DNA of 64,000 bases from a virus. Its lineage: Duplodnaviria > Heunggongvirae > Uroviricota > Caudoviricetes. The stretch lies in IMG/VR virus record IMGVR_UViG_3300034061_003277, positions 479-64,478 of that record. One strand, written 5' to 3'. Below the pieces are notes generated by a model that made no database searches, was not told the DNA's origin, and saw nothing but the letters and a program-made list of their open reading frames with translations. Below are positions 849 to 30,317 of this stretch, piece after piece (positions within the stretch are counted from its first letter, which is position 1; every line of letters starts with the position of its first letter). The translations under genes were made by a program, and so were the position numbers.

Positions 849-1819
849 AAACATTTGTAATAGCAGAGGCAGGAGCTAATCATAATAAAAATTTTAATCA
901 AGCCCTAAAACTGATAGACGTAGCTAAAGAATCAGGAGCCCAAGCTGTTAAATTTCAAACATACTCATCAGAAACTCTTTATAGTAAAAATACTCCTAAT
1001 TTTGCTGGGTATAAAAATATAAATCAACTTATTAAAGATATTGAATTGCCTCGTGAGTGGCAAAAAGATCTAAAGCAATACTGTGATGAGATAGGTATTG
1101 AGTTTATGTCCACCCCATTTGATGAAAATGCAGTTGATGAGTTAGTTAACTTAGGAGTTAAACGATTAAAAATAGCTGGGTTTGAATCTACAGATTTTAG
1201 ATTTGTTGACATGGTAGCTTCATCTAAATTACCTTTAGTTATATCTTTAGGTATTGGATTTGAAATGAATTATTTAGGTAAAATATTTGACATAGCTAAC
1301 AAATATGGAAACCATTTAAGTTTTATGTATGCTAATAATGCTTACCCAACTCCAATTGAAGATGCTGGGGTAGGAATTGTTAGACAATTAGCCCAAGATA
1401 CAAGATACAGTTGGGGTTTATCTGATCATACTGAAAGTACTTTAACACCTGCTTTAGCAGTAGCTGCCGGAGCAACAATAATTGAAAAACATTTTACTTT
1501 AAGTAAACATTTACCTGGACCTGATCATCCATTTGCTTTAGAACCAAACGAATTAAAAGAGATGATTCAAAATATTATATTTGCTGAAAAATCTATTTCG
1601 AAACAAACATCAAATGGAATATCAGACTCAGAACAAGCATTCAAACAAGCAATGCGTTCGGTAGTAGCTAAAACAGATATTAAACCTGGAGAGATTTTAA
1701 CTATAGATAATATTACAACTAAAAGACCTTTTTTAGAAGGATGTACGCCCGCTAGTGAGTTTGAATCATTGTTAGGTATAGTCGCTACTAAAGAATATAA
1801 ATACGATGATTTTATATGA
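845..1819 (+). CDS. N-acetylneuraminate/pseudaminate/legionaminate synthase family (NeuB/PseI/LegI-like)
   Basis: Hallmark N-terminal IAEAGANHN motif, TIM-barrel-type length, C-terminal SAF-like tail; start overlaps upstream stop. Confidence 0.8.
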   Translation: MKTFVIAEAGANHNKNFNQALKLIDVAKESGAQAVKFQTYSSETLYSKNTPNFAGYKNINQLIKDIELPREWQKDLKQYCDEIGIEFMSTPFDENAVDELVNLGVKRLKIAGFESTDFRFVDMVASSKLPLVISLGIGFEMNYLGKIFDIANKYGNHLSFMYANNAYPTPIEDAGVGIVRQLAQDTRYSWGLSDHTESTLTPALAVAAGATIIEKHFTLSKHLPGPDHPFALEPNELKEMIQNIIFAEKSISKQTSNGISDSEQAFKQAMRSVVAKTDIKPGEILTIDNITTKRPFLEGCTPASEFESLLGIVATKEYKYDDFI

Positions 1820-2235
1820 TATTAAGAGAGGCAACATTTAATGATTGGAAAACTCTCCTTGATTGGAGAAATGATCCTTCCACTAGAGAAAACTCATTCA
1901 CTACAGAAGAAATATCAGAATCAACTCATAAACAATGGTTCACAGATAGTTTATCTAATGAAAAAAGAAAAATCTATATTCTAGAAACTAATTTTATTCC
2001 TGTAGGATCTATTAGATCAGATGTTTTAGATACAGATAAGTATATTCTATCTTGGAGTATTGCTCCAAACCAAAGAGGAAAAGGATATGGCACTAAAATA
2101 TTAGAAATTTATTTACAAGGTAAAAAAGGTGAGTTTGTAGCTGAGATTAAATCAGAGAATATAGCCTCTATTAAAATGGTTATGAATAATGGATTTGAAC
2201 AAGTTGATGAATTAAAATATATTAAAAAACAATAA
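1816..2235 (+). CDS. GNAT-family N-acetyltransferase (PseH-like)
   Basis: 139 aa, GNAT-like core (..QRGKGYGTKILE..), embedded in the nonulosonate operon. Confidence 0.5.
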   Translation: MILREATFNDWKTLLDWRNDPSTRENSFTTEEISESTHKQWFTDSLSNEKRKIYILETNFIPVGSIRSDVLDTDKYILSWSIAPNQRGKGYGTKILEIYLQGKKGEFVAEIKSENIASIKMVMNNGFEQVDELKYIKKQ

Positions 2236-2236
2236 C

Positions 2237-2422
2237 ATGACTGATTTAGAAATAATTGATGAAATTCAAAAAGTAAGAGGAAATAATAATGTAAACTGGA
2301 TGGATATATTACGTATAGCTTTTACTCATGCTCCTAAAGAAACAAGAGAAGTATTTAAACGTATTACAAATGATGATAATACTATAAATGAACTATCTAA
2401 AAAATTAGCTAATAACGGATAA
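2237..2422 (+). CDS. hypothetical small protein
   Basis: 61-aa ORF coupled into the operon. Confidence 0.4.
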   Translation: MTDLEIIDEIQKVRGNNNVNWMDILRIAFTHAPKETREVFKRITNDDNTINELSKKLANNG

Positions 2423-3285
2423 TGAGTTATATAAACCATAACTGGAAAGACATAGCTAAAGGTAATACAGCATTTTGTATTTTAGGAGGTCCATCTGTCA
2501 AACAGGTTGATGATATTCAAACTATCATTAATAATAACTTTACTATTACTGTTAATCATAATATAAAAGACTATCCTAACTGTGATTTATATATAACTGC
2601 TGATAATTCTATTGCTAGAGAGTATTTTGAAGACAAAGAATTCTGTCTATTTAAATTTACAGGAGGTAAATTATTAGAAAACCAATCAGGATTTACATAT
2701 GATAAAAATCCAATATGGATTCAAGGTAAAAAAGAAATACTACAACAAAATCCTAATTTAATTAAGATAATAGCTTGCAATGAATTTCCAATTTACAATT
2801 ATTCATTCACAACAGGTCAATTATCAAAACATCATGGAGAAGAATATTGCAAAACTACTCCTCATACTCACCTATGCATTGAATATAGAAATGAACAAGG
2901 TGAGTCTTGGCCTATATTAAGCCCAACAATACCTGAAAGTTTAACTAAATATGGTACTAACCCATATGAGTTAATATCAGGAGGAAATGTATCAGGAATA
3001 TTATTTCAATTGCTATGGTTTATGGGATTTGATAAAGTGATAGTAGTAGGATATGGTGACAATGGAACTTCAAACGGATATGAAATGAATACAATATTTG
3101 AATGGAGTAATGAAGAAATACATGCTATGACAACTCACCATACAAAATGGGGAGACAGATTAAAATCACTCCACGGCTCAGAAATTTGTAGAGAGTATTG
3201 TGATTTTAAACAAGCGTCATATGATGAGTTAGAAACTACTCCTGATAAGAAAAATGAATTAATTTTAAAACTGCTTACATTATGA
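2422..3285 (+). CDS. putative nonulosonic-acid (sialyl-type) transferase, Cst-II/GT42- or DUF115/Maf-like
   Basis: N-terminal 'CILGGPSVKQVD' resembles the Cst-II 'IIAGNGPSLKEIDY' start. 'GFDKVIVVGYGDNGTSNGY' resembles Cst-II 'GYKEIYLSGIDFYQNGSSY'. Comparison is to a remembered family sequence, not a search. Confidence 0.4.
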   Translation: MSYINHNWKDIAKGNTAFCILGGPSVKQVDDIQTIINNNFTITVNHNIKDYPNCDLYITADNSIAREYFEDKEFCLFKFTGGKLLENQSGFTYDKNPIWIQGKKEILQQNPNLIKIIACNEFPIYNYSFTTGQLSKHHGEEYCKTTPHTHLCIEYRNEQGESWPILSPTIPESLTKYGTNPYELISGGNVSGILFQLLWFMGFDKVIVVGYGDNGTSNGYEMNTIFEWSNEEIHAMTTHHTKWGDRLKSLHGSEICREYCDFKQASYDELETTPDKKNELILKLLTL

Positions 3286-4142
3286 AAAAAATTCATTTAA
3301 CAATTCATATATTCCCTAAGGAAATAGATGACTATGAATTTACTATAAATCAATTAAAAGTAGCCTCTAAATTTATAACTAACTTACAGATAGATGCTAA
3401 TGTTATTTTAAATTTAAATGATAAAATAATTGATTGGGATAAATCATCTTTGCCTAAAGAGTATTTTGTAGAAAGATTTAAACATATAAATACAAAACTT
3501 GACTGGGTAACTAATTTAGAAGAAGAAATAACATACAAGCAAGAGTATCATGGTTATCTAGAAAAAAGAATAGCCAATACTAAGCTAGAAGGATATGATG
3601 CATTTTGGTGGCAAGATGTAGATCTAATTTTAGATGATCTTATACTATATGGATTAGAATCTACTTTAGACACTATTACTGAGCCAGATTATATAATAAG
3701 TCCTCAAATATATAAATTTTGGGACACATCATGGGATGTAATATCAGCTGTTCCTAGTAGTGATATTGATGTAGACACATTTGATAGTTTTAATACTAAA
3801 CTACTCCAATATGATAGAAGTATAGGGTTAATACCTAATAAAAACATTAAATTTGCAGGAGGTTGGTTTACTATTTTAAGTGACTCGTTTGTTAAACAAA
3901 TTCCATTTCCTGGTAATACAAAAGGATATGGTAGAGAAGATACATTAGCTTTAGAAATAGGTAAAAAGGTTAATGTAACTCAATATGTGATGAAAGGAAT
4001 AATAGTTCAAGAAAATAGAAAATATTTAAGTAATGCTTTGTATAATAAATTTGTTCATTATAATATAGATTATCTAAAACCTATTAATGAACAATCTTTA
4101 CAAACATTTTATAATTTAATAAACAACATATGGAAAAAATAA
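3282..4142 (+). CDS. hypothetical protein (operon member)
   Basis: 286-aa ORF, start overlaps upstream stop. Confidence 0.5.
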   Translation: MKKIHLTIHIFPKEIDDYEFTINQLKVASKFITNLQIDANVILNLNDKIIDWDKSSLPKEYFVERFKHINTKLDWVTNLEEEITYKQEYHGYLEKRIANTKLEGYDAFWWQDVDLILDDLILYGLESTLDTITEPDYIISPQIYKFWDTSWDVISAVPSSDIDVDTFDSFNTKLLQYDRSIGLIPNKNIKFAGGWFTILSDSFVKQIPFPGNTKGYGREDTLALEIGKKVNVTQYVMKGIIVQENRKYLSNALYNKFVHYNIDYLKPINEQSLQTFYNLINNIWKK

Positions 4143-5314
4143 CATTTTGCATTCCTAGCAAATCAAACCTAAGATACCTTAAAACATGTATCCCATCAAT
4201 TAGAAAAAATTCTTATCGTGATGATCATGATATAATTATTTTTGTTGACTCTGATGAAGATGGAACAGTTAAATGGTTAGAACAAGTTAAAGACAAATAT
4301 AACTTAAGCTATTTTGTTAATCCTAATTTAGGTGAGAGTTTGTTTGGTATAGGTAAAGCATATGATTTTTGTATAGAGCACTCTAAAACGGATATTTTTA
4401 TAATATTCCATGCTGATATGATGTTAGGTAAAAACGCCGATATAAACGCTTATAACCACTTAAAATCTAAGACAGTAGTATGTTCTACAAGAGTAGAACC
4501 ACCTATACATCCTAATAATGGTGAGAAAATAATATCAGATTTTGGGATGTGGCCTGAAGAATTTAAGGAAGAAGAATTTAATTCATATGTTGAGTCACAA
4601 TTAGACGAAACTAAAACTACAAATGGTATTTTTGCCCCATGGATGATGTATAAGAAAGAATACCTTGAAATAGGAGGTCATGACCCAATCTTAAAATCAT
4701 GCCGTGAGGACTCAGACATATTCAATAGAATGAAATTAGCTGAATTTGAGTTTATTCAACCTTGGAACTCATTAGTATATCATTTAACAGGTAGAGGAGC
4801 AGGCAGTTTTGATGGTGATACTGAGCGTCATTTAGCTTGGCAGAAAGAAATGAATAACTCAACTAAAGAATTTATTCGCAAGTGGGGTTCAAATGTTAGA
4901 CATACTGACTTAATGGAACCTATTGTGCCGCCAAAGTATAACATTGCGTTTGTAGTTGACAACTGTAATTTACAATTACTTGAAATTCTAGAGCCAATGT
5001 GTGATAGAATATATGTAGATGAAGTATTCCAAATTGGTCGATCACAAGATTATATAGAAGCATTTCAAGAATCTACATCATTTGATCTACAGAAGAGAGT
5101 ATTAACTAAACAATATAATGACCCTGAGGGTGAAAATGATATTATTGTACATTTTGATGCTAATAAATTCACTCAACAATCATTTTATTTCCTACACCAA
5201 ATACCAGATATAATTAAAGGTAGTGGTGAGGTTGGATTATTTGAGTTAGATATATTTACAATCAATATTATAAACCTTCAAGAGTACCAAAACCAACTTA
5301 TAAAAATATCTTAA
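4130..5314 (+). CDS. GT-A-fold (GT2-like) glycosyltransferase
   Basis: N-terminal 'ITFCIPSKSNLRYLKTCIPSI...IIIFVDSDEDGT' with a DxD-like DSDED. Confidence 0.45.
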   Translation: MEKITFCIPSKSNLRYLKTCIPSIRKNSYRDDHDIIIFVDSDEDGTVKWLEQVKDKYNLSYFVNPNLGESLFGIGKAYDFCIEHSKTDIFIIFHADMMLGKNADINAYNHLKSKTVVCSTRVEPPIHPNNGEKIISDFGMWPEEFKEEEFNSYVESQLDETKTTNGIFAPWMMYKKEYLEIGGHDPILKSCREDSDIFNRMKLAEFEFIQPWNSLVYHLTGRGAGSFDGDTERHLAWQKEMNNSTKEFIRKWGSNVRHTDLMEPIVPPKYNIAFVVDNCNLQLLEILEPMCDRIYVDEVFQIGRSQDYIEAFQESTSFDLQKRVLTKQYNDPEGENDIIVHFDANKFTQQSFYFLHQIPDIIKGSGEVGLFELDIFTINIINLQEYQNQLIKIS

Positions 5315-12593: not shown

Positions 12594-13673
12594 ATGGGTT
12601 ATTTAAAAAACATAGTCACTTATTTCTACAAAATATTATTCAGCTCAGAGATAAATGAAGCTGATAAATTTATTGATAAAGCTGCCATCATCTCTATAAC
12701 TGATGAGCGTGGTAAGATAATCTATGTTAATGATAAGTTTGAGAAGGTTTCTGGGTGGACATTAGATGAGGTTAGAGGTAAAGATCATTCTATAGTCAAT
12801 TCCGGGACGCAACCAGATGGCTATTGGGGTAAGATGTATGAGACTGTGTTGAAGGGTGAAGTGTGGAATGATATTGTATGTAATGTAACTAAAGAGGGTA
12901 AACATTATTGGGTAGACACTTATATTAGAGCCCGTTTTAATAAATGTGGAAAACTAAAAGGATTCTCATCTATTAGACAGGACGTCACTGCGCTTATGGA
13001 GCAGTCTGTTGAGTTAAATAGAAAGAATACATATCTAGAACACGCTGCTAAAATTCTTAGGCACGACATGCACTCAGGTATAAACACTTACATACCAAGA
13101 GGTATTAGTTCATTAGAAAGAAGACTCAAACCAGAAGATATTCAAAAGTTAAAAATAGAAGCTCCTCTTAAGATGATTAAAGAGGGGCTAACTCATGCTC
13201 AAAAAGTTTATAAAGGTGTTTATGAGTTTACCAATTTGGTTAAAAAAGATGTTGTGTTAGATAAAGAGTTATATGATTTAAAACAAATATTAAACTCATA
13301 TCTAGCATCAACTTCATATAAAAGTCAAGTAATAATCAAAGATTTATCTACTGTAGAAGTCAATGAAGCATTATTTTGTACAGCTGTAGATAACCTAATT
13401 CGCAATGGGTTAAAATACAACGACTCAGATACTAAAATAGTAACTATATTTATGGAGGATGATTCTACTCTTGCTATTCAAGATAATGGTAGAGGAATAA
13501 CTCAAGAAGATTTTAATTATTTATCTAGACCTTACACTCGTAAAGAAGGACAAAAAGAAGCAGGTACTGGTTTAGGTTTAAATATATGTGTTGCAATTTT
13601 AAAAGAGCATGGTTTTGATATTACATGTGAAAAAAATGAGGTTGGAACCAAAATGAAAATTAAAATAAAATGA
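12594..13673 (+). CDS. cytoplasmic sensor histidine kinase (PAS + HisKA_3-like H-box + HATPase_c)
   Basis: PAS-like N-terminus (ITDERGKIIYVNDKFEKVSGWTLDEVRGKDHSIV...HYWVDTYI); H-box-like LRHDMHSG; ATPase boxes NGLKYNDSD, DNGRGI, GTGLGLNIC. Confidence 0.7.
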   Translation: MGYLKNIVTYFYKILFSSEINEADKFIDKAAIISITDERGKIIYVNDKFEKVSGWTLDEVRGKDHSIVNSGTQPDGYWGKMYETVLKGEVWNDIVCNVTKEGKHYWVDTYIRARFNKCGKLKGFSSIRQDVTALMEQSVELNRKNTYLEHAAKILRHDMHSGINTYIPRGISSLERRLKPEDIQKLKIEAPLKMIKEGLTHAQKVYKGVYEFTNLVKKDVVLDKELYDLKQILNSYLASTSYKSQVIIKDLSTVEVNEALFCTAVDNLIRNGLKYNDSDTKIVTIFMEDDSTLAIQDNGRGITQEDFNYLSRPYTRKEGQKEAGTGLGLNICVAILKEHGFDITCEKNEVGTKMKIKIK

Positions 13674-14302
13674 GAACACTATTACTATTAAGTTTCTTAT
13701 TAATATCATCACTAGGATTTAGCCAAACTAAATACCCTATCCAAACTATATTCAGAGGTGACTCAGTTGTTATTCTAACTATTAAACAATCTTTTGGTAT
13801 TAATAAAGCAATTGAAACCCAAAAAAGAATTATCCGAGACCAGAATAAAAAAATACTCGCTCTAAATAAAACAATTGATAGTTTAAATAGGATAAATAAT
13901 AGAGTTAATACTGTTATTGATAGTATACAATATATTGCAGACACAACATATAAGTGGGCTGACGAATTTAATATGGTTATCAGAGAACGAGCTATAGGTC
14001 CATGTTTACTTTATACCATACCTCCTTATAACAGTGTATTCTTTTTAGATTTAAGTCGTTATAGAATGTATAGTACAGAATACGGTGAAAAAATTGAATT
14101 AGAATTAATGTCAGATAAACAATATGCCGAGTTTAAAAGACTACAAGATTTATATTTTGATAGATACTACCCTACTTTAGATTATTATAAAGAGATTGGG
14201 TTTAAAGATTTTAATACTGAGATTGAATTATACGAGAAGGCAATTTGGAAGACTAAAAATATAATGAAGTTAATGATAAAACAAGAAGAAAAGAAAAAAT
14301 GA
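13670..14302 (+). CDS. secreted protein encoded between the two kinases
   Basis: Signal peptide MRTLLLLSFLLISSLGFSQ; start overlaps kinase stop. Confidence 0.5.
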   Translation: MRTLLLLSFLLISSLGFSQTKYPIQTIFRGDSVVILTIKQSFGINKAIETQKRIIRDQNKKILALNKTIDSLNRINNRVNTVIDSIQYIADTTYKWADEFNMVIRERAIGPCLLYTIPPYNSVFFLDLSRYRMYSTEYGEKIELELMSDKQYAEFKRLQDLYFDRYYPTLDYYKEIGFKDFNTEIELYEKAIWKTKNIMKLMIKQEEKKK

Positions 14303-15606
14303 AAAAAATAATATCATTACTTATAGTCTTACTTGTATCTATAAATTTATACTCCCAAGAGATAAATTATAAAGACACTCTAGTAGATAACATAGAAACA
14401 ACTTGGATTGATAGCGATACAGCGACATTGGCCGCTATGGGTATTCAAGAAATTGTTACTACTTGGATTGAACCAGAACCAGAGCCAGAACCTGAACCTG
14501 TTGACATGACACAGTTATCAGAAACTGATTTAGTCAACATTGCTCAGGATGTACAATTCCTATCAGAATTGCCTAAGTCATATACTGATTTACCTAAAGA
14601 GGATTTAAAGAATGTTTTAGTTCAAATTGATAATAAACTTAATAAATTAACGGCTGAGCGAGATTCATTATTAGCACAAGCAACTAGAAATGATGAATTA
14701 ATTAAATCAAAAGAAAATACAATTAACGCCTTAGGAAAAGAAAAGAACATCATTGGTTTAACTTTAGAAACTGGTGATTTAATAGTTGAGAAAACAGATT
14801 TAGAAAAGCAAAGAGAAACATTAAAAAAATATCTCTATTGGGCTGTTGGTATAGTAATATTATTTAGTTTAATACTTGCTGTTGTATTACAAAGAAAGAA
14901 AATACAAGTACAGGACGTAGAAATTGAAGAACAACTTAATGACATATCTAAAAAGAATAGTTACTTAGAACACGCTGCGAGAATTATCCGCCACGACATG
15001 CACTCAGGTATAAACACATACATGCCTAGAGGTATTAGTTCACTTGAAAAACGATTAACACCTGAAGACATTCAAAAGTTAAAAATAGAAGGTGCTTTAA
15101 AAATGGTTAAAGAAGGTTTAAACCATACACAGCGAGTATATAAAAGTGTTTATGAATTTACTAACTTAGTGAAATCAGATGTTGTATTGAATAAAACCAA
15201 AGTTAATCTAAAAGATTTGCTTCAAAACTACATTACCCCAAACTCATATAGCTCACAGGTTGAAATTAGTGACTTAGAAGAATTAGAAGTAAATGAAATT
15301 TTATTTTGCAATGCAGTTGAAAATTTAATTAAAAATGGATTATCATATAATGATAGCCAAGAAAAGAAAGTCAAAATATATATTGACAACGACAGTTTAG
15401 TAATCGAAGATAATGGTCGAGGATTTACACAAAAACAATTTGATAAACATTTAACAAAATACTCAAAGAAAACAAATGTTACAGGTGATGAAAATGGACT
15501 CGGTTTGAATATATGCGTTGCTATATTAGAGGAGCATGGTTTTAAATTAAGTTGTGAAGGAAACAATGTAGGAACTAAAATGAAAATTAAAATTAAAAAT
15601 GACTGA
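14299..15606 (+). CDS. membrane-anchored sensor histidine kinase (paralog of 12594-13673 core)
   Basis: Signal peptide, TTWIDSD/TTWIEPE repeat, EPEPEPEPEP linker, coiled coil, TM (WAVGIVILFSLILAVVL). Kinase core ~85% nt-identical over H-box (ttagaacacgctgc...cacgacatgcactcaggtataaaca); DNGRGF, GLGLNICVAILEEHGF. Confidence 0.7.
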   Translation: MKKIISLLIVLLVSINLYSQEINYKDTLVDNIETTWIDSDTATLAAMGIQEIVTTWIEPEPEPEPEPVDMTQLSETDLVNIAQDVQFLSELPKSYTDLPKEDLKNVLVQIDNKLNKLTAERDSLLAQATRNDELIKSKENTINALGKEKNIIGLTLETGDLIVEKTDLEKQRETLKKYLYWAVGIVILFSLILAVVLQRKKIQVQDVEIEEQLNDISKKNSYLEHAARIIRHDMHSGINTYMPRGISSLEKRLTPEDIQKLKIEGALKMVKEGLNHTQRVYKSVYEFTNLVKSDVVLNKTKVNLKDLLQNYITPNSYSSQVEISDLEELEVNEILFCNAVENLIKNGLSYNDSQEKKVKIYIDNDSLVIEDNGRGFTQKQFDKHLTKYSKKTNVTGDENGLGLNICVAILEEHGFKLSCEGNNVGTKMKIKIKND

Positions 15607-16051
15607 CTTGAACATGATTGAATCTATTTTATTAGTAGATGATGAGGATTTATTCCACTTAGTATTTGAAGATGCTTGTAGCCTATTAGACATAACTTTG
15701 TCTTTGGAAGCTATAAACAGTGCTGATGAAGCCGAAAAACGATTTAAAAAATGGTTTGATACCGGTGATATATCTGATAAACCAAAATGTGTATTTGTTG
15801 ATTTAAATATCATAGGATCATCGTTTGATGGTATTGAATTAATTCGACGAATTAACTTTATGTATGGTAACCATGTAGTAGTTGGAATTATATCATCAAG
15901 TAATGAAGCAGAAGAACAAGCCAAAGCACTTCAAGCCGGGGCCCAATTTTGGATCATTAAATCAGATGATATTGAACCACGATTGGAAGAATTTAGAAAA
16001 GACTACCAGGCGTATGAAGCTAGAACAGCCCCATTTAAAATATATAGATAA
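15599..16051 (+). CDS. stand-alone response-regulator receiver (REC, CheY-like)
   Basis: LLVDDED acidic pocket, phospho-acceptor Asp in VFVDLNI, conserved S/T (ISSS) and Lys (WIIKS); no output domain. Confidence 0.75.
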   Translation: MTDLNMIESILLVDDEDLFHLVFEDACSLLDITLSLEAINSADEAEKRFKKWFDTGDISDKPKCVFVDLNIIGSSFDGIELIRRINFMYGNHVVVGIISSSNEAEEQAKALQAGAQFWIIKSDDIEPRLEEFRKDYQAYEARTAPFKIYR

Positions 16052-17304: not shown

Positions 17305-17390
17305 GGCCGGGTGGTGAAACAGGTAGACACGCAGGACTTAAAATCCTGTTGCCCAAAAGAGCAGTGTGGGTTCGATTCCCACCCCGGCTA
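17305..17390 (+). tRNA. tRNA-Leu (anticodon TAA), type II
   Basis: Manual fold: acceptor GGCCGGG/CCCGGCT, D-arm GTG-aaacaggtaga-CAC, anticodon arm CAGGA-cuUAAaa-TCCTG, long variable arm TGC-ccaaaaga-GCA, T-arm GTGGG-TTCGATT-CCCAC. Confidence 0.85.
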
Positions 17391-17503
17391 CTAAAGTACA
17401 TGCTACGCTACCCATAAGAACAGCGTCCCAGAGTATGGCTTTTGCTAAAGAGGATAAAATGCGTAGTAGCCTCAGGAGTCTGCAGCTCCACTACGCTCCA
17501 TTA

Positions 17504-17577
17504 GCGCCCTTAGCTCATTCGGTTAGAGCAACTGACTCATAATCAGTAGGTGCCTGGTTCGATCCCAGGAGGGCGCA
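17504..17577 (+). tRNA. tRNA-Met (anticodon CAT; elongator-Met or Ile2 type)
   Basis: Acceptor GCGCCCT/AGGGCGC, D-arm GCTC/GAGC, anticodon arm ACTGA-cuCAUaa-TCAGT, T-arm CCTGG-TTCGATC-CCAGG. Confidence 0.85.
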
Positions 17578-17598
17578 CTAAAAAGTTTTTTAAATATA

Positions 17599-18503: not shown

Positions 18504-18703
18504 CACCAAAAGAAAAAGCAGAACAATTAGTAAACAAAATGTTTAACTGGATTCAAGGCGGAAGCGTAATAGAATATGAAACAGCTAAAGAATGTGCCTT
18601 GATAGCAGTAGATGAGATATTAAAAGTAGCGTCATTTTACAATGATTCACAAGCCGAAGTAACTTATTGGCAAGAAGTTAAACAAGAAATAGAAAAATTA
18701 TGA
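18500..18703 (+). CDS. hypothetical protein
   Basis: 67-aa coupled ORF. Confidence 0.4.
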   Translation: MTPKEKAEQLVNKMFNWIQGGSVIEYETAKECALIAVDEILKVASFYNDSQAEVTYWQEVKQEIEKL

Positions 18704-19431
18704 GCAAGACAATTATATTAGGAGACACACACGGTCGTAACATTTGGAAAGAGATCGTGTTTCAAGAAAAAGCAGATAGAGTTATTTTTATCGGAGACTA
18801 CTTTGATAGCTTTGATATAGGCCCTGCTGAGCAAATGCATAATTTTCAAGAGATTATTGACTTTAAAGAGAAGGGTGAGTGTGAAGTTATTTTATTAATT
18901 GGTAACCATGACTTTCATTACTACCCAGGCGGCGAGACATACTCAGGATATAAAGCAGGCGCAGCCCCAGCTATTAGACAGATGTTACAAGAAAATGATC
19001 ACCATATGCAAATGTGTTATCAACTTGATAATATCTTATTCACACATGCTGGTATTGGTCATGACTGGTTAGTGTATCAAAACCAATATGAACCATTTAC
19101 AGATCAAGATACTGTAACCAACATAGCTGATTTTGTAAACGCAATTTGGAAATATCAACCTAATCGTTTTATGTTTTATGGAATTGATCCATACGGTGAT
19201 AGTAAAACACAAACACCGATTTGGATACGCCCACAATCATTAATAGCGGGTAATCGAGGTACATTCTTGAAAACAGATTATATCCAAGTAGTAGGTCATA
19301 CTCATGTCGCTAAGATTGATATTGAGGGTAAATCGACAGGCGGTAGATATTATTTCATCGATACATTTGACACCTCAGGTCAATTTTTAGTTTATGAAAA
19401 TAAGGAGTTCAGATTAGGAGAATATCCTTAA
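18700..19431 (+). CDS. calcineurin-like metallophosphoesterase (Ser/Thr-phosphatase / polynucleotide 3'-phosphatase fold)
   Basis: Motifs GDTHG, GDYFD, GNHD, THAG, GHTH. Confidence 0.8.
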   Translation: MSKTIILGDTHGRNIWKEIVFQEKADRVIFIGDYFDSFDIGPAEQMHNFQEIIDFKEKGECEVILLIGNHDFHYYPGGETYSGYKAGAAPAIRQMLQENDHHMQMCYQLDNILFTHAGIGHDWLVYQNQYEPFTDQDTVTNIADFVNAIWKYQPNRFMFYGIDPYGDSKTQTPIWIRPQSLIAGNRGTFLKTDYIQVVGHTHVAKIDIEGKSTGGRYYFIDTFDTSGQFLVYENKEFRLGEYP

Positions 19432-19608: not shown

Positions 19609-20215
19609 TATGGTTGATAATTTTGAGAAAATACGCTACAGGTTGAAATTTGAGGATGATTATTTTTATTTCATCCAGATTATACAGCGGAGTAAAGAAA
19701 ATCCTGAATTAGGTTCAAACAATAGAATTATTCGTTCTTATAATATTGATTCATTAGAAAAGTTTGATAAAAATAAGGATGAAATAACAATACTGTGTGA
19801 TACATTTAATGCTCGAGCTTATATTCATTTGAATAGAAGAAAGTGGAGTAAGGTTGCACTTGAATGCTTAAGACATAATGCCGAATTAATTGCTAATAAC
19901 CAACACAGTGGTATTAAGTCAAGTTTTGAGACTGTAATTGGACGTAACAATGGTGAATCAAGTGAAACTAAGACATGGATCATTGATATTGATATGAATG
20001 ATTTAGAGGTTGTAAATAAAATTGAACGTATCATTAATAGTGTAGAACCTATAGATAGAACTGTAACTAAATTAATGTATGTTCTTCCTACCAAGAATGG
20101 GTTTCATATGATCACTAAACCATTCAATAGAGCTGAATTTACTAAGTATATGCAGTTGCAAGGTGATACACCTGATATTCATACTGATAACCCAACAATA
20201 TTATACGCAATATGA
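19601..20215 (+). CDS. hypothetical protein (track start is TTG; first ATG at 19610)
   Basis: 204-aa ORF between the phosphoesterase and kinase genes. Confidence 0.5.
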   Translation: MVNMVDNFEKIRYRLKFEDDYFYFIQIIQRSKENPELGSNNRIIRSYNIDSLEKFDKNKDEITILCDTFNARAYIHLNRRKWSKVALECLRHNAELIANNQHSGIKSSFETVIGRNNGESSETKTWIIDIDMNDLEVVNKIERIINSVEPIDRTVTKLMYVLPTKNGFHMITKPFNRAEFTKYMQLQGDTPDIHTDNPTILYAI

Positions 20216-20610
20216 AAACATTAATATTATTAAGAGGATTACCTGGATCGGGTAAATCAACATTAGCTAAAATGTTAGTCGGGGATAAAGATTACCGACA
20301 CAAAGAGGCTGATATGTTTTTCGTCGACGGTGAGGGTAATTACAAGTTTGAACCATCAAAAATCAAAGATGCTCATGCTTGGTGTCAAGAGGAGGTTGAT
20401 TTCCTAATGAGATATGAGCATTCGCCAGTGGTAGTGTCAAACACATTCACACAAGAGTGGGAGATGGATGCTTATTTTGAATTAGCTGAGAAGTATGATT
20501 ACCAAACATCTTGCCTTATAGTAGAAAATAGACACGGTGGAGTAAATGAACATGGTGTACCCGCAGACAAATTAGAACAAATGAAAAATCGTTTTGAAAT
20601 AAAATTATAA
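20212..20610 (+). CDS. P-loop polynucleotide-kinase-like protein (AAA_33/PNK kinase-domain type)
   Basis: Walker A LLRGLPGSGKSTLAKM at N-terminus; ~130 aa. Confidence 0.6.
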   Translation: MKTLILLRGLPGSGKSTLAKMLVGDKDYRHKEADMFFVDGEGNYKFEPSKIKDAHAWCQEEVDFLMRYEHSPVVVSNTFTQEWEMDAYFELAEKYDYQTSCLIVENRHGGVNEHGVPADKLEQMKNRFEIKL

Positions 20611-20873: not shown

Positions 20874-22037
20874 ATGGAAAACAATAATTCAGTGTGCTAT
20901 GTAGCACGTATAAACGAAATCAACCCAATCCCAGGAGCAGATAATATCGAACAAGGTGTTATCGGAGGATGGAATTGTATTATCAAGAAAGGAGAATACA
21001 AAGTAGATGACTTAGTTGTAGTAGCAACCACAGACGCAGTTATTCCTGTAGAGCTATCAGATGCAATGAACGTAACCAATTACTTACGTAAGGGTCAACG
21101 TGTGCGTACTGTTAAGTTAAGAGGTGTTTACAGTGAGTGTTTGATTATACCTTTAAGATACGCTCGTCAATCTGCTAAATACACTAAATTGGAGTGGAAT
21201 GAAGGTAAGGATGTAATGGAATTGTTAGGTATCTTCAAGTATGAACCACCAGTACGCCAAGTACAAGTGGCAGGGGGTCGTAAGATTAAATATAAAGACA
21301 ACCCTAATTTCCAGGTTTATTATAAATTCCCCAACATAAAAAATGTGAATGGAATGTTTAATGAAGAAGATTATGTACAAATTACTCGTAAGATACATGG
21401 TACAAATGCTCGTTATGGTATTGTTAAGAAACATAAGTTATCATTTTGGGATAAGTGTAAAAAATTCTTACGATTAGCTGATGAGTGGATTGAGTATGAA
21501 TATGTTTATGGTTCACATAACGTTGAGAAAGGTTCTGATACACAAGGTTTCTACTCAACTGATGTTTGGAGAGAGGTAGCTGATAAGTATCAAATCAAAG
21601 ATAAGTTGTGGGCGTTTGTTAAGAATCACACACCAACTGAAGTTGGAACTGGAGTAATAGTATATGGTGAGATATACGGACCTGGTATTCAAAAGAACTA
21701 TGACTACGGATTGAAGGAGTTAGAGTTTGCTGGTTTTGATGTTGTATGGAATGGTAAATATTTTTGTGGTGAATTAACTCATCTTACAATGATTGGTAAG
21801 CATAATGACTTTATCGACGGTGTTGATTTGCCTCACGTACCTATTTTATATGTTGGACTTTGGTCTCAAGAGATTCAAGATAAGTTCACATTCAACAACT
21901 TTATTGAAGGAACTAAAGTACCACATGAAGGTATTGTAATCAAACACACAAGTGGACAAAGAGAAAAAGTAGCTAAAGTAATTAACCCAGACTATCTCAT
22001 CTATGGAGAGAAACATGATGTAGGAGATTCACACTAA
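20874..22037 (+). CDS. ATP-dependent RNA ligase (KxHGxN nucleotidyltransferase in C-terminal half, DraRnl/Rnl5-like arrangement)
   Basis: Motif I RKIHGTNARYG at ~residue 175; motif IV HEGIVIKH; motif V KVAKVINPDY; ~170-aa N-terminal extra domain. Confidence 0.6.
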   Translation: MENNNSVCYVARINEINPIPGADNIEQGVIGGWNCIIKKGEYKVDDLVVVATTDAVIPVELSDAMNVTNYLRKGQRVRTVKLRGVYSECLIIPLRYARQSAKYTKLEWNEGKDVMELLGIFKYEPPVRQVQVAGGRKIKYKDNPNFQVYYKFPNIKNVNGMFNEEDYVQITRKIHGTNARYGIVKKHKLSFWDKCKKFLRLADEWIEYEYVYGSHNVEKGSDTQGFYSTDVWREVADKYQIKDKLWAFVKNHTPTEVGTGVIVYGEIYGPGIQKNYDYGLKELEFAGFDVVWNGKYFCGELTHLTMIGKHNDFIDGVDLPHVPILYVGLWSQEIQDKFTFNNFIEGTKVPHEGIVIKHTSGQREKVAKVINPDYLIYGEKHDVGDSH

Positions 22038-22083: not shown

Positions 22084-22734
22084 ATGAAAATAGAATTAAA
22101 ACCCCACCAAGGATTATGGTTTACAAGTGATACTCACTACAACCATGCTAACATATGTCGAGCGACTACAAGATGGACTGATGCAGATGCTGTGACTCGT
22201 GACTTTAGTTCATTAGAGAAAATGAATGAGACATTAGTATCTAACATTAACAAATATGTTCAACAAGATGATATCCTGATTCATTTAGGTGATTGGTCAT
22301 TTGGTGGTTTTGAGAGTATTAAAGAGTTTAGAGATAGGATTGTATGCCAAAACATACATTTAGTACTCGGAAACCATGATCATCATATTTCAAACAACAG
22401 AGACGATATCCAATCTATATTCAGTTCAGTAAATCAATACTTAGATTTAGATGTTAGATGGTGGGTTGCTGGTAAGATAAAAGAACACGCTCGTTTCATC
22501 TGTATGCATTATCCTATAGCGAGTTGGAATGGAATGAATGATGGGGCAGTTCACTTACATGGACACGTTCATTTACCTAAACATTTAAGAATGGCAGCTG
22601 GCAAGGCAATGGATGTAGGAGTAGATGGAAATGATTTGGAGCCAATTGAAATGGATGATATATTAATTAAAATGGTATCTAGACCAATCGATAAATTAAC
22701 ATTACCAAAAGATCATCACGTTAAAAGAATATAA
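22084..22734 (+). CDS. calcineurin-like metallophosphoesterase (second copy)
   Basis: SDTHYNH, LGDWSFGG, GNHDHH, HLHGHVH. Confidence 0.75.
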   Translation: MKIELKPHQGLWFTSDTHYNHANICRATTRWTDADAVTRDFSSLEKMNETLVSNINKYVQQDDILIHLGDWSFGGFESIKEFRDRIVCQNIHLVLGNHDHHISNNRDDIQSIFSSVNQYLDLDVRWWVAGKIKEHARFICMHYPIASWNGMNDGAVHLHGHVHLPKHLRMAAGKAMDVGVDGNDLEPIEMDDILIKMVSRPIDKLTLPKDHHVKRI

Positions 22735-28321: not shown

Positions 28322-28473
28322 TGGATCAAATAGCATATGGTATATTGTTTGCCTTACAAGGACTAGCAATAGCGTTTATAGTATATATTGGAGTGTGGAT
28401 GCCTAAAGATAAAATGAAGGGTCACGCCGGTAGAGACAAATGTAAATGTTGTAAAGATTAAAAAATAAAGGTT

Positions 28474-28680
28474 ATGAAAAAAGCATTAAAAATAATTTTA
28501 GCATTTATTGTAATAAATGTAATCATGGGTATTGGTGTTTGGGGAGTAATTACTAACGAAAGTGATACAGAACCAGGATGGCAAGTATGGGGATGGTTTT
28601 TAGCAGTACTTACAATTGCATGGCCAGCTATTAGTTTTTGGTGGGATAGAATGCTTTGGTTATTAGATTTAGAAGATTAA
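28474..28680 (+). CDS. small membrane protein
   Basis: 68 aa, two TM helices, W-rich. Confidence 0.45.
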   Translation: MKKALKIILAFIVINVIMGIGVWGVITNESDTEPGWQVWGWFLAVLTIAWPAISFWWDRMLWLLDLED

Positions 28681-28804
28681 AATAATTAGCCCCGCTCGCG
28701 AGGGGATCGTAAAACACAGTAAGCCTCTGACACAAGCTCAAGTAACTGTTCTCATCGTATAGGAGATAGAGTTAGCCTACTCGACGTCGTTTAAAAAGGC
28801 AGCA

Positions 28805-28871
28805 AGTCAGGTAACTTAATTGGCAAAGCTCCTAACAAGGAAGATTGCGGGTTCGAATCCCGCCCTGACTA
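28805..28871 (+). ncRNA. tRNA-like element A (canonical acceptor, D-loop and T-arm; no canonical anticodon arm)
   Basis: 5' AGTCAGG pairs perfectly with 3' CCTGACT; T-arm GCGGG-TTCGAAT-CCCGC; D-loop aattggc; only 67 nt, anticodon region tcc-taacaag-gga is non-canonical. Confidence 0.4.
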
Positions 28872-29136
28872 CGATGAGTGAGAGATCCTCAGGCAGATTG
28901 GCTACATTCTGTAAAAAAAGTAGTGGTAGTAAAAAGCCCCCGACCTTAATGGGGAATCGATTCGGGTTAAAGTGAAGCATATCCGCAGCTCCGACGTATA
29001 GGATTGACAGGTTTTTATGTGGTAAGACACTAATGAAAAAGACCGACTGAGCGAAAGGCAGAAGGGGATATGGTTCTCGAAATAGTTAGAGAAACCCGTT
29101 AAAATCTACTCACTGAGATCTCAGGTGGGGCAATAT

Positions 29137-29299
29137 AGTCAGGTGGCGGAATTGGTAGACGCTATCGTACTCAAGTAAGGCAAAGCAATGTAGATGAAAC
29201 GTCGTCACATGGTGAGTTAACACCTAAAAGTCTTTGGACTTGAAATCCAAAAAACCTTGAGTATGTTCTACAATACAGGTTCGAATCCTGTCCTGACTA
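29137..29299 (+). ncRNA. tRNA-like element B: split Ser(TGA)-type tRNA with ~70-nt insertion between D-arm and anticodon arm
   Basis: 5' AGTCAGG-tg-GCGGAATTGGTAGACGC (canonical type-II D-arm). Perfect anticodon arm TTTGGA-cuUGAaa-TCCAAA at 29233-29251. T-arm ACAGG-TTCGAAT-CCTGT and 3' CCTGACT. Confidence 0.4.
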
Positions 29300-29377
29300 C
29301 GCACCTACAATTGGGTAGGAAGTTGGCCGCCAACCAACAAGGGACAAAGGCTGACACCTCGGAAAGACGAGGAACAT

Positions 29378-29447
29378 AGACAGGTAGTTTAATTGGTAAA
29401 ATGTTCTCATACTGAGAAGAATACAGGTTCGAATCCTGTCCTGACTA
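29378..29447 (+). ncRNA. tRNA-like element C (acceptor/D/T canonical, anticodon arm replaced by tight hairpin)
   Basis: AGACAGG/CCTGACT acceptor (1 mismatch), D-loop aattggtaaa, T-arm ACAGG-TTCGAAT-CCTGT; central TTCTCA-tac-TGAGAA hairpin. Confidence 0.4.
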
Positions 29448-29549
29448 CAAAAACACATTAACTCAAGTACCCATACTGAGGACGATGGGCTAAGTAAGAT
29501 ACAATTCCGTCATGCAGGGAGTAGAATGCTTGAGAATGTGTTTAAATAT

Positions 29550-29654
29550 AGTCAGGTGATTTTTGGAAAACGCAGCACCTTCCAGGGTTGAGACTAACAG
29601 CTAATGGCACTCAGAATGATAAAGCTGAAGCAGGTTCGATTCCTGTCCTGACTA
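29550..29654 (+). ncRNA. tRNA-like element D (105 nt; shared acceptor and T-arm, expanded centre)
   Basis: AGTCAGG...GCAGG-TTCGATT-CCTGT-CCTGACT-A; 73-nt central region without canonical arms. Confidence 0.35.
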
Positions 29655-29670
29655 CTAAAAATAAAAATAT

Positions 29671-29913
29671 ATGGCAAAAGTAACAATTGAATTTGACCGT
29701 GATGAAGAAGCAAATGAGCTCCGCACCACACTAGATGGGAATAAGTATAAACATCTTATCTGGGAACTAGACCAAAAACTACGTAGTGTACATAAGTACG
29801 GAGCCGCTCTTGAAGGTGGTGGTGAAGCAACTGAAGCTGAAATGGAGGTATGTTATAAATTAAGAGACATTATTAGAGAAATGTTATTAAATGATAATTT
29901 AACAATAGAATAA
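29671..29913 (+). CDS. hypothetical protein
   Basis: 80 aa. Confidence 0.45.
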   Translation: MAKVTIEFDRDEEANELRTTLDGNKYKHLIWELDQKLRSVHKYGAALEGGGEATEAEMEVCYKLRDIIREMLLNDNLTIE

Positions 29914-29915
29914 AT

Positions 29916-30317
29916 ATGATTATATATTTAGATGATATACGAACACCAATTGAGACAGATTGGGTTGTTGTTAGAAATTATGATGAGTTTGTATCTAAAA
30001 TAACTGAAATTGGTTTAGATGATATTGAACTAATATCATTAGATCATGACCTAGGCGATTCAGCTATGAGGGAATGGCACACCAATGTATATCACAACTA
30101 CACCTTAGACTATAATAACATTACAGAGAAGACTGGAATGGATTGTGCTAGATGGTTAGTGGAACAATGGTTAAATGGAGCCCCAGTATGCCAAGTAATG
30201 ATTCACTCAGCTAACGCTGTTGGTAGTGCTAACATGATGGGTTATATTAACAACTATAAACATATCCATCATTTAGAACAAGACTGTGCTCGATGGGTAA
30301 TACCACATACAATATAA
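29916..30317 (+). CDS. hypothetical protein
   Basis: 133 aa. Confidence 0.45.
   Translation: MIIYLDDIRTPIETDWVVVRNYDEFVSKITEIGLDDIELISLDHDLGDSAMREWHTNVYHNYTLDYNNITEKTGMDCARWLVEQWLNGAPVCQVMIHSANAVGSANMMGYINNYKHIHHLEQDCARWVIPHTI

Follow-up and report, generated by a model that had tools for sequence, protein, structure and literature searches.

A candidate family of tRNA-framed, non-decoding small RNAs with exchangeable cargo in uncultured freshwater phages

The 64,000-nt stretch of caudovirus DNA studied here (IMG/VR record IMGVR_UViG_3300034061_003277, positions 479 to 64,478; the whole stretch is called the window) contains, at 28681-29665, a non-coding block with four elements, A to D, that carry the acceptor stem and T arm of a transfer RNA (tRNA) and no canonical anticodon arm. 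A first-pass annotation, made from the letters alone, had pointed these elements out; what emerges beyond it is a very large phage family, of which the block is a single locus and in which a fixed frame surrounds exchangeable inserts, here termed cargo. We consider it reasonably probable, from comparison of sequences, that the members are non-decoding, tRNA-framed small RNAs, with the frame serving excision, CCA addition and stability, the cargo serving function, and whole elements being exchanged. The block itself looks like an array of non-coding RNA genes, polycistronic-looking, with its units separated by tRNA-type processing.

The constant frame and its cargos

The window is phage-like, with about 31% GC and nearly all genes on the plus strand, and similarity searches with the block and with a 24-kb stretch found no close relative among 50,697 cultured or deposited phage records. 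The block lies between an open reading frame (ORF) of 68 amino acids (aa), which ends at 28680, and one of 80 aa, which starts at 29671. Within it are only overlapping ORFs of 40-54 aa on both strands, none convincing, which bears out the first description of the block as free of genes for protein. Its four co-oriented elements likewise lie where they had first been placed, and the sizes of A and D and the shape of C hold (Table 1). The claim that all four share one identical acceptor pair needs qualification: AGTCAGG/CCTGACT is exact in A, B and D, with seven of seven pairs formed, but C begins with AGACAGG, whose A3·A70 mismatch leaves six. A T arm with a 5-bp stem and a 7-nt UUCRANY loop (UUCGAWU here) is present in every element, and the sequence said to be common to them is seen as ACAGG-TTCGAAT-CCTGT in B and C and as GCAGG-TTCGATT-CCTGT in D, but is replaced in A by GCGGG-TTCGAAT-CCCGC. 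Similarly, the D-loop motif AATTGG accompanies a D stem in A, B and C; D instead reads TTTTGG, keeping the GG and only one strand of the stem. The discriminator base A73 is present in all four. A canonical anticodon arm (5-bp stem, 7-nt loop, U33 and purine 37 at positions 27-43) is found in none, as had been proposed.

These signatures are concentrated in the block. The sequence CCTGACTA occurs six times in the window, always within the block, against 1.41 expected, and none of 100 shuffles reaches six; GGTTCGAWTCC, with at most one mismatch, also occurs six times against 0.47 expected, namely at the four elements and at two real tRNAs. The latter, a tRNA-Leu and a tRNA-Met upstream, are genuine by both ARAGORN and the Rfam tRNA model, in keeping with their first identification.

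Searching the block for standard cloverleafs, the check that the first-pass annotation had suggested, leaves the unusual status of the elements intact. ARAGORN names only C, as 'tRNA-Val(tac)', and leaves A uncalled; in the Rfam tRNA alignment C has 5 nt where the model expects a 7-nt anticodon loop, and for this reason it is not a standard tRNA. Against RF00005 (gathering threshold 29 bits), A scores 43.4 bits and C 49.8 bits, each passing by virtue of the frame, since the anticodon region is unaligned or has low posterior probability, while B gives a partial match of 25.1 bits and D none. Indeed, element D has no Rfam match even at E <= 10. With permissive thresholds, a run of all Rfam families over the block, the entire window and nine rich loci matched the elements to the tRNA model alone. 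Neither the transfer-messenger RNA (tmRNA) mode of ARAGORN nor the Rfam tmRNA model finds a match in the block, where the elements have U3-A70, not G3·U70. The YrlA model (RF02553) reaches only 17.8 bits (E = 1.5) against a threshold of 69, and a Pfam scan of 40 window ORFs gave no TROVE/Ro60 domain.

The frame, AGUCAGG…ACAGGUUCGAAUCCUGU-CCUGACU-A, is common to at least 293 fetched loci, almost all of them IMG/VR viral contigs (loci are cited by L number). They carry 501 copies, 438 of them unique, with up to nine in a locus of 15 kb or less, and the copies lie on a single strand in 291 of the 293. The baits were a 24-nt 3' half of the frame (CAGGTTCGAWTCCTGTCCTGACTA) and a 25-26-nt 5' half (AGTCAGGTGGCGGAAT(N)GGTAGACGC), each of which matched at least about 120 IMG/VR viral contigs. 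Of 87 new copies recovered with the 5' half, 78 have a 3' half that matches; most deviations are transitions compatible with G·U, and compensatory changes appear in the T stem of these copies now and then. The shortest elements measure about 45 nt and the longest about 250 nt, the median being near 105. An unbiased scan showed that the loci combine lengths of 67-196 nt with the acceptor AGTCAGG or its G·U variants, and normal tRNA lengths with other acceptors. We propose that membership be defined by the acceptor AGUCAGG/CCUGACU (G·U variants allowed), A73, a T arm RCAGG-UUCGAWU-CCUGU, the absence of an anticodon arm, and U at -1 with C at +1. All of these are present in B, C and D, C with its one acceptor mismatch, and A has all but the T-stem sequence (GCGGG/CCCGC).

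Hidden anticodon arms are no commoner than chance across the family. A canonical anticodon arm stands in place in one of 219 unique copies, a tRNA-Lys(UUU) in L042, and a 5-bp/7-nt hairpin with U33 and R37 occurs anywhere in the insert in four of 219, against 3.96 in shuffled inserts. ARAGORN leaves family members uncalled or assigns them arbitrary anticodons. Intron-containing, pseudogene and decoding identities were rejected on these chance-level anticodon arms and on the conservation of the frame.

The family is, apparently, large, undescribed and resident in uncultured freshwater phages, probably phages of Bacteroidota. Among cellular genomes (185,579 bacterial and archaeal species, one genome each) there are only 21 matches, all on contigs of metagenome-assembled genomes (MAGs); about half are labelled Bacteroidota (Chitinophagia, Sediminibacterium, Flavobacterium, Saprospirales), and their likely origin is phage DNA binned wrongly. 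The full frame is absent from cultured phages: searches of these with the block, the 24-kb stretch, the bare frame and a D-type element (described below) returned only ordinary tRNAs sharing the D arm or the T arm. No description of the family turned up when the literature was searched by sequence and by concept, and an IMG/VR-wide survey of structured RNAs offers just a few generic 'tRNA or tRNA-like' candidates.

Within the frame, the cargo of about 15-130 nt replaces the anticodon and variable arms and is extraordinarily diverse: 330 unique copies fall into 268 cargo clusters, 231 of them singletons. Two patterns illustrate how cargo and surroundings come apart. Across nine phages with 88-95% identity in both flanks, a shared intergenic site carries at least six unrelated cargos, which also differ in length, inside frames that remain 82-100% identical. 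Conversely, the same cargo (80-100% identity) recurs between flanks without detectable similarity. Element B provides an example, as the one other copy found, on the metagenome contig Ga0164292_10084386, is 98.2% identical over 170 nt, coincides with the element (window 29132-29300) and lies between unrelated flanks; a 16-nt probe from its cargo gave no copy in IMG/VR.

The D-type cargo, named after element D, allows conservation to be examined in depth. The pattern GGTTGAG-N10-22-CTCWKWATGRYAAAG identifies it in 87 IMG/VR contigs, and an alignment of 47 sequences (A1; element D and 46 relatives) was used for covariation analysis. Compensatory changes affect seven of seven acceptor pairs, four of five T-stem pairs and the pair that closes the cargo, 29-81 (GC 30, UA 12, AU 4); for example, AGUCAGG/CCUGACU is replaced by AAUUAUG/CAUAAUU, GGUCAGC/GCUGACC or UUGGGUA/UACCCAA. 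Of the cells, 93.0% are paired versus 82.7% in shuffles, and 15 pairs have double changes versus 9.0 expected. None of 500 shuffles reaches the observed values, and slid controls collapse. Throughout clades with changed acceptor stems, the cargo core C-ACC-loop-GGU-U-GAG-hairpin-CUC-WKWAUGRYAAAG is invariant. Because the core holds while the acceptor covaries, the conserved determinant of the D-type is the cargo and not the acceptor sequence. Element D matches the definition of the type (that core, with a loop of 5-7 nt and a covarying closing pair) in all invariant columns, its own cargo ending in CUC-AGAAUGAUAAAG.

Selection on structure is also indicated beyond this type. Across 34 cargo clusters, the variable predicted pairs comprise 15 compensatory, 21 G·U-consistent and 7 broken cases, compared with 3, 31 and 204 in slid controls.

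A second conserved cargo type, …GAAUAGAAYGAACUCGAGAUANUUYUAUUC…, was noticed in L247, L259, L262 and L062, on different acceptor stems and in large phages with near-complete tRNA sets; an example is the 101-nt element GGTTGCG…CGTGACC of L247. This suggests several ancient tRNA-framed RNA families besides the D-type.

An extra T-arm-like hairpin is present in the cargo of 23 of 438 copies, and a hairpin is inserted in the D loop of 8 of 438, which speaks against seeing the cargo simply as one compact, structured domain. Antisense targets were sought by comparing the block with the rest of the window, where the best score of 28 bits lies within the 24-36 bits of shuffled sequence and is chance. 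There was no sign of spacer-like acquisition of cargo: in about 2 Mb of loci, the best 40 matches to cargo outside elements looked like unmasked family copies. An 11-codon ORF, which starts at the AUG conserved in the D-type and reaches into the T arm, was judged a trivial consequence of fixed spacing, and mimicry of an anti-Shine-Dalgarno sequence by the D-type CACCUCC was set aside on the grounds that CCUCC is not kept in all members.

Maturation context and the tRNA-Leu frame

RNase P prefers U at position -1 and recognises the stack of acceptor and T arm together with the elbow. Among family elements, 142 of 178 are preceded by U (-1) and 174 of 178 are followed by C (+1), after which comes AA or UA. 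For the ordinary tRNAs of these loci the counts are 113 of 167 for U at -1 and 167 of 167 for C at +1, and the trailing bases are again CAA or CTA. The tRNA-Leu and tRNA-Met of the window end in …A followed by Ctaa, as does element D, and family elements are embedded in or lie beside tRNA arrays. From these tRNA-like flanks and the preferences of RNase P, we infer that elements are cut and finished like tRNAs. A scan for sigma-70 promoters gave nine sites against 4.9 expected, none compelling. One candidate, a TTGACA upstream of the GAAAGA leader hairpin (described below), was rejected as its start would fall inside an acceptor stem, and is read as part of an RNA hairpin motif.

A pathway can be envisaged on this basis. 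Each element retains the top half and elbow of a tRNA (7-bp acceptor, A73, U8, the GG of the D loop and the T arm with its UUCGAAU loop) and has a cargo domain where the anticodon and variable arms would be. The array would be transcribed with the gene flow, RNase P would cut the 5' end of each element, and the host machinery for tRNA 3' ends would trim the other end and complete CCA. The tRNA fold would stabilise the products, and cutting would also free the conserved RNAs of the spacers. In essence, the frame would be a handle for processing and stability, and the cargo, different in each element, would hold the function. Cassettes swap among phages, as the distribution of cargos shows, presumably by recombination through the constant halves of the frame.

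In most members the frame is that of a leucine tRNA. Its positions 5-26 (AGGUGGCGGAAUUGGUAGACGC), including those of element B, are 100% identical to tRNA-Leu genes of all 5,426 E. coli genomes; a class II D arm of Leu type is found in 204 of 330 copies; and A73, U8 and U48, the base before the T stem, are present in 97%, 96% and 81% of copies, respectively. The leucyl-tRNA synthetase (LeuRS) of E. coli needs A73, A15-U48, G18G19, A20a and contacts of the D and T loops, and does not require the anticodon and variable arms (PMC9976931). The identity set, taken as A73, a class II D loop with A14, A15, G18G19 and A20a, U48 as the Levitt partner of A15, and intact contacts of the D and T loops, is present in element B, with positions 5-26 as in E. 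coli tRNA-Leu, a T at 29274 (U48) and A73; A, C and D, with other D arms, do not have it. Judged by these positions, the family appears to have kept the parts that LeuRS reads and swapped out the two arms that it ignores. It is a speculative extension that B-type members are leucylated, which would add protection by EF-Tu.

Weighing the interpretations

Several considerations weigh against the proposal of tRNA-framed small RNAs with functional cargo. Every step of maturation is read from sequence context. Mean cargo folding is barely better than shuffled (z = -0.4) and no k-mer or motif is common to all cargos, which together make a common molecular partner for the cargo unlikely; some cargos may be filler. 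The 231 singletons among 268 cargo types are outside the reach of selection tests, and the test on 34 clusters favours structure, since folding with RNAalifold itself rewards covariation. C, with its A3·A70 mismatch, and D, with one strand of the D stem lost, could be decaying, and the near-invariant acceptor within the phage group could come from concerted evolution instead of function. Nor can leucylation be the common denominator, because about one third of members, including A, C and D, are without a Leu-type D arm.

Fast turnover of cargo at fixed loci is, speculatively, the pattern expected of host-specific or counter-defence functions. A fuller scenario, which we put forward tentatively, is that freshwater phages, probably of Bacteroidota, exchange a library of hundreds of small RNAs built on one frame derived from tRNA-Leu, using host tRNA maturation and possibly LeuRS and EF-Tu; the cargos would be replaced at fixed loci about as fast as strains diverge and would act as host-specific inhibitors, sponges or regulators.

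It is conceivable, if unlikely, that the elements are instead decoys, as the first-pass annotation had suggested with anticodon nucleases in mind, or competitive inhibitors, with the constant frame as the active part. Abundant uncuttable look-alikes would then soak up tRNA-targeting defence nucleases of the host or other tRNA-binding host factors, and the anticodon arm would have been replaced to prevent cutting by such enzymes as PrrC/RloC, PARIS AriB, retron-PtuAB or Cas13-type collateral RNases. The presence of RNA healing-and-sealing genes and of a gene for the cyclic-phosphate protein cREC beside the array is in line with this idea, as cREC/RNA-ligase systems have been linked to the repair of nuclease-cut RNA (PMC7824862). 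So is the enrichment of cREC genes near D-type elements (8 of 54 loci versus 7 of 252; Fisher p = 0.0014). Short members, moreover, just cap the anticodon stem with a tri- or tetraloop, and the only canonical tRNA with the frame, the tRNA-Lys(UUU) of L042, is a classic nuclease target. Known anticodon nucleases recognise the anticodon loop, however, and the loop that they cut is absent from the elements. Decoys would need no cargo of 50-130 nt, which leaves the covariation of cargos, the conservation of the D-type and the hundreds of cargo types unexplained, and RNA-repair genes are found in the fetched flanks of few loci only, with no gene family adjacent in more than about 10%.

We likewise assign a low probability to a role confined mainly to punctuation, in which elements would make RNase P and the 3' machinery cut the transcript and so define the ends of spacer RNAs or mRNAs, the tRNA-like product being a by-product. 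There is a documented precedent in t-elements (PMC1920247). Spacers 1, 2 and 4 and the GAAAGA hairpin exceed the genes around them in conservation and are found again just 5' of elements in many phages; the folds of spacers 3 and 4 have z of about -3.4; and many single elements sit tightly between a stop codon and the gene that follows. The first-pass annotation had also offered processing signals for a structured RNA as one possibility, and this survives in part: the -1 U/+1 C context is that of the phages' real tRNAs and the spacers are conserved, structured RNAs. For punctuation a minimal fold would do, though, and the long covarying cargos of the D-type and of B are left without a reason. 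Cargo is replaced at a fixed site while both flanks stay unchanged, and many elements have no conserved spacer alongside. Punctuation is compatible with the proposal of framed small RNAs and partly contained in it.

Decay or neutrality is very improbable. The copies would be pseudogenes of a phage tRNA (Leu or Lys), or repeats kept as recombination hot spots, and mean cargo folding near that of shuffles, the lack of a shared motif and the small defects of C and D agree with this; contig ends near DUF932 genes could be assembly breaks at repeats. Drift cannot, however, place unrelated cargos at one site in phages that are 90% identical. The frame is near-invariant in hundreds of copies while flanks diverge, the flanking processing signals are kept, cargo types are 80-100% conserved across unrelated contexts with compensatory changes, and phage genomes seldom keep 1 kb of junk. 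The suggestion of tRNA pseudogenes in the first-pass annotation falls on the same grounds, together with the 98% identity of element B in an unrelated phage context.

Disguised decoding tRNAs, whether intron-containing, permuted or functional after splicing, possibly by the phage ligase, kinase and phosphoesterase, can be practically dismissed: the B cargo does hold a perfect hairpin, UUGGA-CUUGAAA-UCCAA, with anticodon UGA, and the phage encodes heal-and-seal enzymes, but such hairpins number 4 of 219 against 3.96 by chance, with the arm in place in 1 of 219, no group I intron (RF00028) matches 28400-29900 at E <= 10, the window cargos of 15-112 nt are too short for the roughly 200 nt or more that one needs, and removing the 5' part of B leaves a variable region that pairs with the removed segment. 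The spliced or permuted tRNAs first suggested for the block are contradicted by the same counts and by the missing intron match.

The array, its neighbourhood and comparable RNAs

The proposal of an array of framed small RNAs invites a closer view of the block and its surroundings, whose features are collected in Table 1.

Table 1. Positions in the window of the array units, the canonical tRNAs and other genes discussed.
Feature	Position	Strand	Description
Spacer 1, array leader	28681-28804	+	begins with hairpin CCCCGCTCGCGAGGGG at 28691-28706
Element A	28805-28871	+	67 nt; acceptor 28805-28811/28864-28870; D arm ~28814-28828; T arm 28847-28863; A73 28871
Spacer 2	28872-29136	+	265 nt, non-coding
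Element B	29137-29299	+	163 nt; acceptor 29137-29143/29292-29298; D arm (tRNA-Leu type) 29146-29162; T arm 29275-29291; A73 29299
Spacer 3	29300-29377	+	three hairpins; minimum free energy (MFE) z = -3.36
Element C	29378-29447	+	70 nt; A3·A70 mismatch; UUCUCA-UAC-UGAGAA (6-bp stem, UAC triloop) replaces anticodon arm
Spacer 4	29448-29549	+	102-nt long hairpin; outer stem ACACAUUAACUCAAG/CUUGAGAAUGUGU; MFE z = -3.37
Element D	29550-29654	+	105 nt, D-type; three-way junction replaces anticodon arm
tRNA-Leu(UAA)	17305-17391		canonical tRNA, upstream of block
tRNA-Met(CAU)	17504-17578		canonical tRNA, upstream of block
Metallophosphoesterases	18700-19431, 22084-22734		upstream of block
AAA_33 kinase	20212-20610		upstream of block
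RNA ligase	20874-22037		upstream; PHROG 968, 2.8e-61; PHA02142 OB domain
DNA ligase			upstream of block
cREC 'cyclic-phosphate processing receiver' protein	29916-30317		directly downstream; PF20274, 8.8e-24; then DUF932
Sugar-modification cluster	39-5314		GFO/IDH/MocA oxidoreductase, NeuB sialic-acid-type synthase, family 2 glycosyltransferase
PAS-HATPase histidine kinase	12594-13673		two-component-like set
HATPase protein	14299-15606		two-component-like set
Response-regulator receiver	15599-16051		two-component-like set

Each element fills the place of the anticodon arm in its own way. In A, a UCCU-AACA-AGGA hairpin (28830-28841; 4-bp stem and tetraloop) sits there, and the free MFE fold is a cloverleaf minus the anticodon loop. 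The fold given for C is a constrained one, and stem-plus-triloop forms akin to it are known from L042 and from Tenacibaculum phage pT24. The 112-nt cargo of B (29163-29274) is a branched multi-hairpin closed by a 9-bp stem, GUACUCAAG/CUUGAGUAU, and includes the anticodon-arm-like hairpin described above. In D, the 5' strand of the D stem is degenerate or lost; it is kept in the relatives L105, L244 and L225.

The spacers, for their part, appear from their conservation to be RNAs or signals in their own right, and the GC-rich palindromes that the first-pass annotation had mentioned are real and lie within them. Positions 28684-28801 of spacer 1 (118 nt) are 93-99% identical in eight loci (L189, L373-375, L305, L105, L221 and L180). 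In L373-375 the DUF932 protein beside it has only about 66% identity, so that the spacer is far better conserved than the surrounding genes. Thermodynamically it is unstructured (MFE z = +0.69), and it may be a leader, a promoter or a base-pairing RNA. Spacer 2 is 86-100% identical at positions 28874-29041 and 29072-29130 in L244 and L310, and parts of it match L187, L058, L016 and L103, where they immediately precede other family elements. The stretch at its 3' end (about 29071-29136) forms a leader motif that recurs, AAAUCUACUYA…AUCUCAG.GUGGGG.AAUAU.

The last hairpin of spacer 3 (29353-29377) pairs CCUCG (29357-29361) with CGAGG (29368-29372) around the loop GAAAGA (29362-29367). It belongs to a leader hairpin of the form GAC-N-(5-bp stem)-GAAAGA-stem-AAYAU (AACAU in the window), which occurs directly 5' of family elements in at least 17 distinct sequences with an invariant loop and covarying stems (GCUCG/CGAGC, GCUUG/CAAGC, GAUUG/CAAUC, GCACG/CGUGC and GCCGG/UCGGC). 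Spacer 4, an RNA without an Rfam family, is 90-94% identical in L108, L305, L373-375 and L249. Its interior, GUACCC…GGGCUAAGUAAGAUACAAUUCC…GGGAGUAGAAUG, is invariant in homologues, and in distant copies (L002, L050, L009 and L011), each directly upstream of a family element, the outer stem covaries. In relatives, spacer 1 is followed directly by spacer 4 and then by a D-type element. The window has A, spacer 2, B, spacer 3 and C between spacers 1 and 4, which adjoin in L373-375, L305, L108 and L249, and this unit looks like an insertion.

RNA-repair genes, to which the first-pass annotation had referred, indeed lie on both sides of the block, by domain and profile matches. For cREC proteins, such as the one downstream, a role in removing 2',3'-cyclic ends for the RNA ligases of phages has been proposed (PMC7824862). 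When 3,306 neighbouring ORFs were clustered de novo, no protein partner emerged, in that no family occurs in more than about 10% of loci, and for this reason an obligatory partner, if any, would more probably come from the host or from another part of the phage genome. Of the window's proteins, DUF932 is the commonest neighbour; an element lies within 6 kb of it in just 21 of 80 loci. In the loci that contain both, 32 of 32 elements are on the strand of the DUF932 gene. Many contigs stop no more than about 1 kb upstream of the DUF932 gene, about where the window has its array, and these ends may be assembly breaks.

Other observations concern the window and the loci more broadly. The window encodes a two-component-like set, unusual for a phage, and a sugar-modification cluster (Table 1). 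In L195, a 235-nt gene (1366-1600, minus strand) between two tRNAs of a phage array with more than 20 tRNAs and family elements resembles a reduced RNase P RNA, scoring 49.7 bits on RF00010 (gathering threshold 100; E = 1.8e-14). It retains P1-P4, GAGGAAACUCAGG, AGAUUAAUG and ACAAGAUCC, lacks most of the specificity domain, and may be a phage-encoded minimal RNase P RNA. A freshwater-1 RNA (RF02979) scores 70.1 bits, with a gathering threshold of 72, inside a tRNA/tRNA-like array of L016 (4124-4186, plus strand). In L009 (7609-8193, minus strand), a group I intron (97.8 bits) abuts a tmRNA match (49.2 bits) in a locus that also has family elements. Finally, an unannotated 43-nt stretch of the T7-like Synechococcus phage S-TIP37 (MH540083.1, 4942-4984) is 86% identical to the frame with D arm and T arm fused, and may be a mini tRNA-like element in a cyanophage.

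Comparison with known RNAs underlines what is distinctive. With tRNA (RF00005) and class II tRNA-Leu in particular, the family shares the acceptor, U8, the GG of the D loop, the UUCGAAU T arm, A73 and the -1 U/+1 C context; it differs in having no anticodon arm, a cargo of 15-130 nt and one near-fixed acceptor over hundreds of molecules. The ends of tmRNA (RF00023), which also occurs in phage tRNA arrays (L012, L009), similarly form a module of acceptor and T arm, with a large insert in place of the anticodon arm. In the family, however, U3-A70 takes the place of G3·U70, the identity pair for alanine; the D arm is intact, and the far smaller cargo is not conserved and has no tag reading frame or series of pseudoknots. 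YrlA (RF02553) is non-decoding and mimics acceptor, T and D arms; it is the partner of Ro60/Rsr, is processed and modified by tRNA enzymes, occurs in phages and is linked to RNA-repair genes (PMC4201824; PMC7824862). Its topology is inverted: the ends of YrlA form the Ro-binding stem and its 'acceptor' is closed by a loop, whereas the ends of family members form the acceptor stem.

The closest parallel in design is man-made. In the engineered tRNA scaffold of Ponchon and Dardel (PMC3753655), made for producing foreign RNAs in E. coli, a cargo grafted in place of the anticodon arm undergoes RNase P and 3' processing and escapes nucleases. That scaffold uses tRNA-Lys or tRNA-Met, while the family is natural, multi-copy, based on tRNA-Leu and evolves as cassettes. 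Non-decoding tRNA-like folds that are cut by RNase P and RNase Z and define the ends of neighbouring RNAs include MALAT1 mascRNA and the tRNA-miRNA units of murine gammaherpesvirus 68 (MHV68). The t-elements of plant mitochondria are also of this kind (PMC1920247). All of these are eukaryotic or organellar, have few copies and, unlike the family, hold no hypervariable cargo, conserved by type, inside the fold. Among phages, the T4 'species 1 and 2' (rnaC, rnaD) are small stable RNAs of the T4 tRNA cluster, matured with the tRNAs. They are two fixed genes in one phage lineage and, to our knowledge, have no shared frame with many cargos; the likeness drawn is one of description.

The closest case in a cultured phage is a cluster in Tenacibaculum phage pT24 (L395; LC168164.1, 191520-192477), a jumbo phage of Bacteroidota, where an amber-suppressor tRNA (CUA) accompanies tRNA-like units (192032-192477). 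Two near-identical 'tRNA-Undet' genes have a long stem with a triloop (GGGUA-UAU-UACCC), as in C, and a 'tRNA-Pro' has a 6-bp stem with a 5-nt loop in the place of the anticodon arm. The acceptor differs (GGUUGUA/UACAACC) and only short cargos are seen. The genome note counts the cluster plainly as '4 tRNAs' (PMC5502841). Seen against all of these systems, the family is apparently a tRNA-like non-coding RNA set apart by one frame with hundreds of exchangeable, individually conserved cargos.

The pT24 count points to a practical consequence. Finders of tRNAs mislabel such genes with arbitrary anticodons (Val, Leu, Ser, Pro, Cys, Tyr, 'Undet'), which inflates phage tRNA counts and can mislead analyses of codon usage and suppressor tRNAs. 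The tRNA-scaffold trick would also gain a precedent from nature, with a catalogue of tolerated cargos and insertion points, including the D loop, and the tRNA-Leu frame of the family predicts anticodon-independent charging of a non-decoding RNA, which bears on the identity rules of synthetases that can be exploited. More broadly, with at least 293 loci, the family would extend the known phage non-coding RNAs by a large class so far unrecognised. The replacement of one cargo by an unrelated one at a site shared by near-identical phages is the signature of an arms race or of host range. If some cargos are RNA factors for counter-defence or host takeover, they would constitute a new layer of phage-host conflict, and the arrays would, if this is true, be the RNA counterpart of the accessory and anti-defence gene islands that phages keep for proteins.

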